Origin: Rhizophagus irregularis
Taxonomy: Eukaryota
Reading direction: 5' to 3'
Assembly (NCBI RefSeq): GCF_026210795.1
Contig: NC_089429.1
Span: forward strand, 372,001 to 436,000
DNA length: 64,000 nucleotides
The position numbers and the translations under genes were made by a program. Shown in pieces: positions 13,704 through 16,366 of this stretch; the stretch's first letter is position 1; each line of letters starts with the position of its first letter. The notes under the pieces were generated by a model. It searched no databases, was not told where the DNA came from, and worked only from the letters and a program-made list of their open reading frames with translations.

Positions 13704-16366
13704 ATGTCTGAAGACGCTTATACTTCTGAATCAAAGTATTGGGAACAAAATTTTATAGCGATGCCATTCTTTGATCAATCTGAAGAATGGAGCCTCTTAA
13801 ACTTCCTAAAGTACCTTGACTCGGTGAAGAGTTTGGACGACCGTTCTGAAGCACATCATAAGTATAAACTTCTTTTGAATAGTATCAAGGATAATAAAGA
13901 AATGTCGGAAGAAAAAGAAAAAAGGCTAAACAGGCACTGTTAACTTACGAATCAACAGTTAAGTATTTTTTTTATTATTATTCAATATTATCGTCTAGAG
14001 GAAGGAGGAAGGAGTGTCGGTTGAGGCTGAAGAACCCTGCCATCGAGGTGGTAGGCACTCGTGCTAGGTTGAGGCTGAAAAACCTCCGTCGAGGCGGAAG
14101 GTGCACCTCTGGATTGTTTTTAGGCGCTTAAAAATAAGTACCAGACAACCTCAATAAATTCTAACAACTAACTATTTCTTTGGCTTTTAGAATGAATCCC
14201 ATTCTTCCGAGATCAGAGAATTTTGGCTTCGAATATCTCTTAATGAAAAAGCTACGAAAAGTACCAAAAGAATTATCGACCAAATTAATATAGTACAAGA
14301 TGAAGCGAGCGATATTTTAGTTCTCTGCAAGAGGGACAATCTTATGAGACTACGATCAGGTATTTTATTGTTAGATTTATAGCTTCTCATTATTTTTCTT
14401 TGTTGACTCAGTTGATTTTTTACATTAAATAGATTTTGAAATTGGAGAAAATACCGAAGAAGATGGTGGACTGGCAAAGGTATATAATAAATCAAGTAAA
14501 CAGCGCATTGCTCAAAAATAATGACCAAACTTATGTTATAGAATAAACCTGTACGGCCATCCAACGAAGACCCTTCCAACCTTTCTAATGGTGATGACTT
14601 TTCCAAGGATGACGACCTTTTCGATGACGACCTTTTCGATGGCAACGACCTTTCCAATGATGGCGACATTTCCGATAATAACAATGATGGCTTTTCTAAT
14701 GGGTTTAAATCAGAGAAAGGTGAGGAATGTGATTTACTGAGTTACGTGAACCATATTCACAGAAAATTTTAAACGAAGGTATAAAATTACCAGCTTCTAA
14801 TAAACGAGAAAATGAGACCGAAAGAGACGTATCTACATGCAAAAAGGTAAGTAATTATAGGTGGTAAAAGCTACAAGAACGTAAAAGCTCATGTACATTT
14901 TTCTATATTTAGGCAAAAAAGAGCGTGAAGAATGATTCTCAACCAAGAAACGGAAGGTCATCCACCGAGCCTCTTCTCTCTTCTGATGAGAGTAACAAAG
15001 AACATAATGAAGACGATACGGAAATTAAAGTTGATCTACCAAGTATTTCAACCGAATTGCAACGTGAACCGATAGTCAAAGTATTATACATATTAAATTT
15101 TGATTCTTTTACTACATGTACCTTACGGTTTGCTTCTGTTTTTCAGTGGGAAGTTGGCCACATCAATGTGACCGATCGGTTTCGGCAGTACCAGAAGGAA
15201 ATTATTAATAAGGCGGAAATGAAAGGGTTGAAATACGACAATATATACGAACTCTTGTATGTACTCTGAAAATATAACACAACGATTTTACTAAGCATCT
15301 TTTTCTTATACTTAGAGCTTTGTCATCGATTATTGTCCTCTCTTGGCCATGACCATATCCTTCCTTGTTTACAATTCAAGAATGGAAAGAAGTTACAAAA
15401 AATAATCCTTATACTGTTCAAGAATCCTCACTTTCACCAGACATTTTGTCATCTCTTAATGAAGCATCGTTTAACCATTTTCTCGAAAAGGACGCATTTA
15501 TGGAAAGTGGAAAATCGAAACTAAGTAGACTAGCTGCACGATCGTTTAATGATTTGTATGTAATATAATTTTGTAATATATACATGAGATTGTAGCTTAT
15601 ATAATTTTTTTTCCGTCGTAGATATGACAGTATCATGAAGACTGCTCCGTTAAAATTGTCCTAAGAAGAACATTGTCTACACTTCGTCTACCCAATTGCT
15701 CGCCCATTTTTCGTTGGTGAGAAAGAATACGATTTAGTGTTAAACCGTTCTAATTCGGGCTCTAGAAAAAGACCGGACCTTTCATGTGTGGTGAATGGTG
15801 TACCGATTCTGAATTCGGAATTTAAACCTTTGGGAAATACACCGTTACAACGAATGAAGGATAGGCTGAAGGCGCAGTTAAGGGCTCGAAAATCCATTAA
15901 TCAACAATTACAAAATAAGGGAGGTCCGGGCGAAGCTGTAATATTTTTAAACATGGGTAGGTGAGAGAGATTGCATGAGAATTTATTTTTATATATATTG
16001 ATTTATTTTCTGCGATAATTAGGCGACTTAATGGAATCTTATTCTATGGATCTTAAGTATGACGGTTTATACCGTTCCTGGCCATTCCTCACTACCAGGC
16101 TGGTAGTTGACAAGACCATGATTCCGCTTGCAGGAGTTGCGATCCATCACTTGGTATCTTTAGAGGTATATGTCACATTTCCTTGTTTATAATAAGAAAC
16201 ATCACTTAATTTCATTTGCCCTTTACAATTGCAGGAGCACGTTGAACGGATAGCAAAGGATTATAAATATAGAGCATGTCGTAGTGGTAATACTACACCG
16301 ATCGAGCAAATGTCTTTTATGCGTAAATTTCCAGACTCACCACAAGTAAAAAAATTGATTCATTAA
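13704..16366 (+). pseudogene. Multi-exon Crinkler-like gene: N-terminal helical domain, acidic linker, C-terminal PD-(D/E)xK nuclease fold; apparently disrupted
   Basis: N-terminal FFDQSEEWSLLNFLKYL. C-terminal RKRPDLSCVVNGVPILNSEFK (PD...ExK). Many GT-AG introns. Frameshift in an A-run near 13915 and in-frame TAA at 15662. Confidence 0.7.
13991..14150 (+). ncRNA. Structured RNA element in intron 1: two tandem three-way junctions with GAGG-containing loops
   Basis: Unit 1 GAGTGT[GGTT-GAGGCTGAAG-AACC][CTGCCAT-CGAG-GTGGTAG]GCACTC. Unit 2 repeats the loops with different stems (TCCGT/GCGGA). Enclosed by TCTAGAGG/CCTCTGGA. Mismatches are G-U on the + strand. Confidence 0.65.

Follow-up and report, generated by a model that had tools for sequence, protein, structure and literature searches.

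A tandem-module, probably structured RNA element in the first intron of a nuclease-like gene of Rhizophagus irregularis

Only a small number of structured cis-regulatory RNAs have been recognized in fungi. The Glomeromycota keep large families of unexplained nuclease-like genes. In type III toxin–antitoxin systems, tandem small repeat RNAs showing one motif lie next to a nuclease. In the thiamine pyrophosphate (TPP) riboswitch introns of fungi (Neurospora NCU01977), as described in PMC3597705, structured RNA lies within a fungal intron, part of the fold pairs near a splicing signal, and expression is decided by alternative 5' splice sites. Intronic structures of the fungal genes for RPL32/L30, RPS13 and lysyl-tRNA synthetase have been proposed or shown, in passages of PMC5640933 and PMC8216456, to bind the product of their own gene and to limit splicing. 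Crinkler-RHS (CR) proteins combine an alpha-helical header with restriction endonuclease (REase) toxin domains, and proteins with the CR-type REase are considered toxins in passages of PMC5289972. The present study concerns a GC-rich element in the first intron of a nuclease-like gene, designated gene 1, located in a window of AT-rich eukaryotic DNA of R. irregularis (64,000 nucleotides (nt) of contig NC_089429.1, the whole stretch analyzed). It was concluded that the element is real and conserved and probably RNA-level in nature, and that it represents an undescribed family whose function we infer.

The element homologues were read as peptides, from gene models of other loci that run into intron 1; scans of metagenome, viral and GTDB DNA gave chance matches or none. 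The metagenome scan, with a search pattern that was too short, returned 119 loci, all at chance level (best nhmmer E 0.05), the viral DNA scans returned 16 chance loci and then 0, 0 and 0, and the GTDB scan returned 0. In the tblastn comparison, the element was matched by 7 of 59 proteins, among them P0021, which is the window locus itself, and six more were recognized by eye in the alignment; the search with the element translation found 2 proteins among 16 candidates. The Funneliformis geosporum gene model matched 38 of 41 residues of the element translation, and that of Acaulospora colombiana 16 of 17. In Racocetra persica, all 17 of 17 residues were identical, with exon 1 being 73% identical. 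The element translation was also found in F. caledonium, F. mosseae, A. morrowiae, Paraglomus occultum, a paralogue from R. irregularis and two proteins of metagenomic origin. The element is present in at least five genera, and the comparison of these peptides supports a degree of conservation between orders of Glomeromycota that equals or exceeds that of the adjoining coding exon. It should be noted that the gene models translate it in two frames with 1-nt offsets, and therefore the constraint acts on nucleotides and not on protein. The reading of gene models into the element in many species also explains systematic annotation errors. The element accompanies the 'header' domain encoded by exon 1 across proteins with unalignable C-terminal parts, and the tandem modules can be regarded as established for only part of the header superfamily.

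The first-pass annotation, made from the sequence of the window, had described a GC island in an AT-rich intron that consists of two similar modules, and both of these points were borne out. The GC content of the element (13994-14113) was 57%, compared with 14% and 30% in its flanks, and the six other introns of gene 1 were 57-73 nt long with 22-29% GC. Local alignment of module 1 with module 2 gave a score of 49, which was reached in 0 of 1000 dinucleotide shuffles (mean 13.8, maximum 33). Standard pairs sufficed to draw all eight helices named at first reading, with G-U accounting for 7 of the 47 pairs, but the GGUU/AACC hairpins (hairpin A of each module) were hardly populated, as considered below, and the drawn structure (-39.6 kcal/mol) lay 5 kcal/mol above the minimum free energy structure (-44.8 kcal/mol). 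In the fold of 13994-14137, helix P0, hairpin B of module 1 and the AU-rich hairpin were well populated in the ensemble (pair probabilities for P0 of 0.83-1.0). The enclosing helix and P1 of module 2 compete for C14106. The AU-rich hairpin, the third in the original drawing, can be drawn as proposed but carries an alternative splice donor at its tip. The counting of G-U pairs does not by itself demonstrate selection: the 7 wobbles among 47 pairs are there and the helices exist only on the transcript strand, but such wobbles are expected when the pairs are chosen on the plus strand. No second copy of the element was found elsewhere in the 64-kb window.

The loops had initially been described as conserved GAGG, a reading that the homologues correct, as they have GAGU or GAGC and share the core YGAG. 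In these homologues, neither the innermost U-G nor the innermost U-A pair is kept, so that the loops are larger than drawn; the revised hairpin A is GGU/ACC with the loop YGAG-K-C-Y-GA.., and hairpin B has the loop UCGAGN. The peptide of P0009 is compatible with the octamer GTCGAGTC in both module-2 loops. Each gene-1 module likely folds as P1 plus two hairpins displaying YGAG. Changes inferred in 10 proteins (n = 34, not independent) fell into loops in 18 cases and kept a pair in 6. The pair-keeping changes, among them G14039A (two proteins), G14055A and C14087T, were one-sided, of the types G-U to A-U, U-G to U-A and C-G to U-G.

The fates of intron 1 in RNA were followed in six RNA runs from four studies (all contigs, as listed). 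Intron 1 is spliced out (13958-14190), retained, or cut at 14124. The full splice was found in one X20 contig, which joins 13957 to 14191, and the same exons are joined alike in gene models P0003, P0008 and P0011, which confirms the first-pass intron; its borders are GT..AG. One X19 contig skips 67 nt up to the acceptor at 14190, with a joint that slides by 6 nt and reads GC..AG when placed at 14124; the Funneliformis gene model P0001 exits the element at the same 14124 junction. Unspliced intron-1 sequence was present in all six RNA runs, the full splice in one and the 14124 donor in one. Contigs of X15 cover the whole of intron 1 unspliced, a contig of X17 keeps the 3' part of intron 1 while introns 2 and 3 are removed, and record 8 of X20 begins at 14001 and extends into exon 2. 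Keeping the element in the message leads to a stop within 56-57 codons.

A paralogue in the window, gene 2, carries in its predicted first intron an element that differs in sequence from that of gene 1 and is not homologous to it. Each of its three modules contains UUCUGG twice. Both sides were changed in 8 of 18 consensus pairs among the three modules (RNAalifold), and covariation was thus stronger than in the gene-1 element; an earlier hand-drawn structure with P1 out of register was discarded, since its covariation was matched by 126 of 500 shuffles. In P0057, a separate locus of the gene-2 type, two pairs are forced to change on both sides and 11 of 11 testable pairs are still possible; this protein can encode a 10-bp stem, as can 3 of 150 random peptide pairs, and in three of its loops the motif bears an identical G-to-A change. 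On the gene-2 intron, Rfam gave no more than three chance-level matches. Compared with P0018 and P0026, exon 1 of gene 2 contains an interruption of roughly 100 additional bases near 21252-21351. Judging from these sequences, the two subfamilies appear to share the place and plan of the element, with one motif in two loops of each module, and to differ in the motif. The first-pass view of a selected, strand-specific RNA element is supported by the cross-order conservation, the complete Racocetra match and the clear covariation of the equivalent element in gene 2.

In both introns, a complement of the loop motif lies beside a predicted branch point. In gene 1, the branch point is predicted at the CTAAC motifs at 14159-14165 (TTCTAAC) and 14166-14172, and the duplex of the hairpin-A loop with its complement had -9.4 kcal/mol, a value equalled in 18 of 500 shuffles and in 31 of 1662 window tiles (p about 0.04). 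In gene 2, the complement (21602-21610) lies directly 3' of the predicted branch point TACTAAT (21595-21601); its duplex had -10.5 kcal/mol (1 of 500 shuffles; 18 of 2132 tiles for its 8-mer; p 0.002-0.006). The gene-1 motif reached only -2.0 on the gene-2 intron. This pairing is to be taken as a lead only. The positions of the features are given in Table 1.

Table 1. Positions of the intron elements and of their host genes in the window.
Feature	Position	Strand	Remarks
Gene 1, exon 1	13704-13957	+	encodes N-terminal helical header domain (F..W...FL)
Gene 1, intron 1	13958-14190	+	233 nt, GT..AG; RNA joint in X20
GC-rich element	13994-14113	+	closed by helix P0 (13994-14000 with 14107-14113)
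Purine-rich linker	14001-14011	+	inside the element
Module 1	14012-14060	+	P1, hairpin A 14019-14036 (loop U-GAG-G-C-U-GA...), hairpin B 14037-14054 (loop UCGAGN)
Module 2	14061-14106	+	plan as module 1; hairpin A 14067-14084, hairpin B 14085-14098
AU-rich hairpin	14114-14137	+	alternative 5' splice site at tip (donor 14124, GC in this allele); pair probabilities 0.54-0.99
7-nt complement of hairpin-A loop	14149-14155	+	ends 3 nt before predicted branch point
Gene 1, exon with PD..ExK-like motif	15668-15961	+	weak HSDR_N match (Pfam)
Gene 2, exon 1	21074-21359	+	distantly related header, 28% identity
Gene 2, intron 1	21360-21630	+	predicted GC..AG, 271 nt
Gene 2, modules	21383-21436, 21446-21501, 21508-21570	+	three, sequence-divergent; closing helix, hairpin, linker

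Gene 1 extends to about 16370 on the plus strand and matches the R. irregularis gene models P0008 and P0011. It was labelled 'nuclease fold' because of the weak match of its PD..ExK-like exon to HSDR_N (E = 0.0016 for this exon; HSDR_N matches overall E = 0.0016-0.014, under the curated cut-off). The search of PDB sequences with this exon gave no match, and the full-length single-sequence structure model of the protein had a pLDDT (predicted local distance difference test) of 39.5, too poor for fold assignment. The profile search with exon 1 yielded 50 representatives at E ≤ 0.001, and all those with an organism name belonged to Glomeromycota; the C-terminal parts of the header proteins were diverse and mutually unalignable. 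The header was modelled as a four-helix bundle (pLDDT 70). Comparison of 41 members with Pfam revealed no family and only scattered weak matches, the search of PDB sequences gave a best E of 0.37, and in the Atlas the header occurred only in unnamed Mucoromycota clusters. The residues A-S follow the end of exon 1 in 8 of the 21 header proteins in which that end was matched, and in gene 2 A-S corresponds to a GCAAGT donor, a weak one, which suggests that the A-S run-on marks a GC donor across the header family. Several header-protein tails (P0018-P0059) have a high content of G, A, R, P and W and might represent other intronic elements in translation.

The window allele is frameshifted in an A-rich run of exon 1 near 13902-13925, and its exon-1 open reading frame (ORF) ends at the stop at 13941-13943; the indels in this run differ among the window, X16 and X20. 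The run may be a mutation hot spot that turns gene 1 off. Between the X19 strain and the window, 17 of the 22 differing places in 13500-16500 were G>A or C>T, many of them at CpG, a bias that is expected for a methylated, decaying gene; 11 of 19 checked changes from X19 and X20 were of the CpG type. Changes of X19 within the element include G14025A and G14061A. Gene 1 is broken in this Rhizophagus allele. Because of the frameshift in exon 1, the indels of other alleles at the same place and the X19 changes within the element, the element there is probably a degenerating copy of a functional system. Upstream of gene 1, a multi-copy repeat was found at 13500-13590. Many RNA contigs match it at 85-99%, and their flanks differ, as seen in 4 of 4 runs; it has a 7-bp terminal inverted repeat (GATGCT..AGCATC) and a weak fold, and may be a mobile element of small size or part of a shared promoter.

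According to our best explanation, in which our confidence falls slightly short of even, the conserved two-module sequence, likely folding in the pre-mRNA, would switch the transcript between complete splicing and forms that are not productive, and thereby keep the nuclease low. That the element is a selected RNA structure can be considered quite likely; its control of splicing is evenly balanced, and feedback through the header domain is rather improbable. In the proposed mechanism, P1 and the two hairpins of a module would display YGAG (gene 1) or UUCURG (gene-2 type). By pairing with the complement next to the branch point, a motif loop would mask the branch point, or it would mask the distal donor. 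A protein, in all likelihood the header domain of exon 1, would bind cooperatively to the repeated loops, resulting in negative feedback specific to each subfamily. The header is the best candidate for the loop-binding protein because the element travels with it. Through loop pairing, protein binding, or both, the element would shift intron 1 between full splicing and the early-stop forms. A wider version, which is a long shot, would see in the Mucoromycota header-nuclease superfamily an RNA address code in intron 1, in which the motif of each subfamily (YGAG, UUCURG, others) pairs next to the branch point of its own intron and is read by the cognate header, with each paralogue thus policing its own toxin through splicing. 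If true, this would be a eukaryotic, intron-encoded counterpart of RNA-antitoxin systems. A conserved RNA switch in the first intron would itself show how potentially self-damaging genes are held down, and it would offer a natural series of pairs of RNA motif and protein partner for studying the co-evolution of specificity.

A number of observations weigh against the switch. The folding stability of the element and the modules on the plus strand was no better than that of shuffled sequences (z from -0.03 to -1.83), the pair probability of hairpin A (GGUU/AACC) was 0.02-0.03, and both sides were changed in only 1 of 8 consensus pairs between module 1 and module 2, which leaves the compensatory stem change that had been claimed for the two modules thin. 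Ten of the 34 inferred changes break a pair, 8 of them at two loop-closing pairs; the breaks in core stems, G14096A (F. caledonium) and G14061A (F. mosseae, also X19), are both of the CpG type. Peptides cannot prove double compensation across species in the gene-1 element, and internal repeats in the read-through tails were significant in 1 of 12 proteins tested. As to splicing, the short side of the X20 contig with the full splice is 30 letters, which is marginal, and the retention of intron 1 may be due to DNA present in the libraries or to the gene being dead. The complements beside the branch points were noticed post hoc, the gene-2 8-mer also pairs moderately with the gene-1 intron (-6.5; 8 of 500 shuffles), and homologues alter the loop base G14026, with their branch-point targets not visible in the peptides. 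The header, finally, is a generic helical bundle and not a known RNA-binding fold, and the fold search (Foldseek) gave nothing at E ≤ 0.001, the matches being generically helical (best Z 7.2).

An explanation that keeps the RNA and changes its mode of action is one in trans: intron RNA, whether excised or retained, would serve the gene's own nuclease as a decoy or antitoxin, or would be an antisense regulator of paralogous pre-mRNAs. Each intron has four to six copies of the motif but a single complement in cis, the element brings its own closing helix, P0, the gene has been repeatedly inactivated by frameshifts, as may befall costly toxins, and the standing of CR-type REase proteins as toxins in passages of PMC5289972 fits an antitoxin. 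We nevertheless consider action in trans unlikely, as no RNA contig was confined to the element (record 8 of X20, which starts at 14001, enters exon 2), and its staying with the header while the C-terminal domains differ is a better fit to a role of the header.

It is similarly unlikely that the element is a passenger, that is, a fold-back element inserted long ago, or an array of protein-binding sites at the level of DNA, carried by a mobile or recently exchanged gene family, with no function in RNA. The z-scores near zero, the decay of the alleles, with 11 of 19 changes of the CpG type, and the high identity between genera, which could reflect gene exchange or contamination, are all compatible with it. 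The element was, however, single-copy in the DNA runs X11 and X12, the latter of which may be the source, with one full record at ≥ 80% identity in each, a count outside which copies below 80% fall. It had no target-site duplication, and its perfect terminal repeats were 0-2 bp with three choices of boundary, so that the miniature inverted-repeat transposable element named at first reading as the alternative finds no support in either copy number or ends. In Racocetra, the element is conserved better than exon 1, and the flanks of the gene-2 modules and of P0057 pair though they differ in sequence, which would be needless for DNA-binding arrays.

Known RNA families were sought with the covariance models of Rfam 15, which gave 0 matches at the gathering score in the 64 kb and 0 matches at E ≤ 10 in 13950-14200; three chance-level matches around the element all lay outside it. 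This Infernal search agrees with the first-pass statement that no known RNA family could be assigned. Consensus motifs of ribozymes, riboswitches and small nucleolar RNAs (snoRNAs) were applied as well. A hammerhead ribozyme was rejected because, in spite of CUGAAGA at 14027 and GAAA at 14077, stem II would have 1 bp and the homologues read CUGAC; CUGANGA is absent from module 2 and from the homologues. UGAGA and CCUGA of the TPP riboswitch are both absent from intron 1 of gene 1, ACGR of guanidine-II does not occur on its sense strand, and box C (RUGAUGA) of a box C/D snoRNA is lacking there, with CUGA present twice. A Smaug element was dropped on a motif test of intron 1, and a kink-turn and a T-box were dropped by eye. 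A literature search over listings and the first parts of abstracts, in which subscription papers were sparse, turned up no structured cis-regulatory RNA from Glomeromycota and no account of this element; interspersed intronic structured RNA has reportedly been described in Rhizophagus, in a report that the same search did not find and whose RNA may be identical with this element.

A self-cleaving ribozyme or a metabolite-sensing riboswitch would account for compact three-way junctions with conserved loops, for a CUGAAGA that fits CUGANGA, and for a donor that adjoins the element as in the TPP riboswitch introns of fungi. This reading is very unlikely: besides the hammerhead stem II of 1 bp, the restriction of CUGANGA to module 1, the lack of TPP motifs and of a sense ACGR loop and the empty Rfam result, the contigs cross the element without a break, the host gene has no metabolic role, and paralogues have different loop motifs. 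That the element is an alternative coding exon that only appears structured is likewise very unlikely. It is contained in many gene models and flanked by an AG at 13997-13998 and by donors at 14051 and 14124, but the frames in which it is translated differ among the models, with offsets of 1 nt, its retention gives a stop within 56-57 codons, and no RNA joint to the internal acceptor was present among the joints listed for the six runs.

Outside the two header genes, other features of the window were recorded. On the minus strand, 5778-6892 holds a tandem array of four exons, nearly identical and each about 270 nt long, with PKPFHAQP.. repeats. A further peptide repeat lies at 7299-7805. Two other GC islands, at 4814-4936 and 42657-42774, consist of short TTCGGC or AACCGG repeats. 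Judged by eye, a tandem helical-repeat and double-kinase gene at 26879-30696 (minus strand) resembles the expanded MLKL-like kinases of these fungi, and an ORF at 39222-40295 (minus strand) has an HxD..H motif like that of 2-oxoglutarate/Fe(II) oxygenases (TET/JBP-like). The regions 42777-55694 and 61653-63989 contain DNA-transposon remnants whose ORFs resemble, by eye, hAT/BED, Tc1/IS630-type DDE, pogo/CENP-B and MULE/FAR1.

The gene-1 element thus shares traits with several described systems. Like the RNAs of type III toxin–antitoxin systems and the CsrB decoys, it has tandem folds with a repeated motif, and, as in type III, a nuclease is adjacent; unlike them, it is eukaryotic and lies inside a spliceosomal intron. 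As with a TPP-type switch, alternative splice products of the intron are present, and these may be regulated. It differs from the TPP introns of PMC3597705 in having no TPP consensus and no Rfam match, in its tandem modules with one repeated motif, in a putative partner by the branch point and not by the donor, and in a nuclease-like host. With the autoregulatory intronic RNAs, in which, according to passages of PMC5640933 and PMC8216456, a conserved structure lies in an intron, often the first, it shares its position; unlike those, the header lacks a known RNA-binding fold, the gene family is large and shuffled, and the loop motifs of paralogues differ on a similar plan. The architecture of gene 1 recalls the CR proteins, of which it may be a member, but its header type matches no profile, and the passages of PMC5289972 mention no intronic RNA. 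As in the CR proteins of those passages, a modular helical N-terminal header is joined to varied C-terminal domains, the signal for PD..ExK is weak, and there has been expansion in Rhizophagus.

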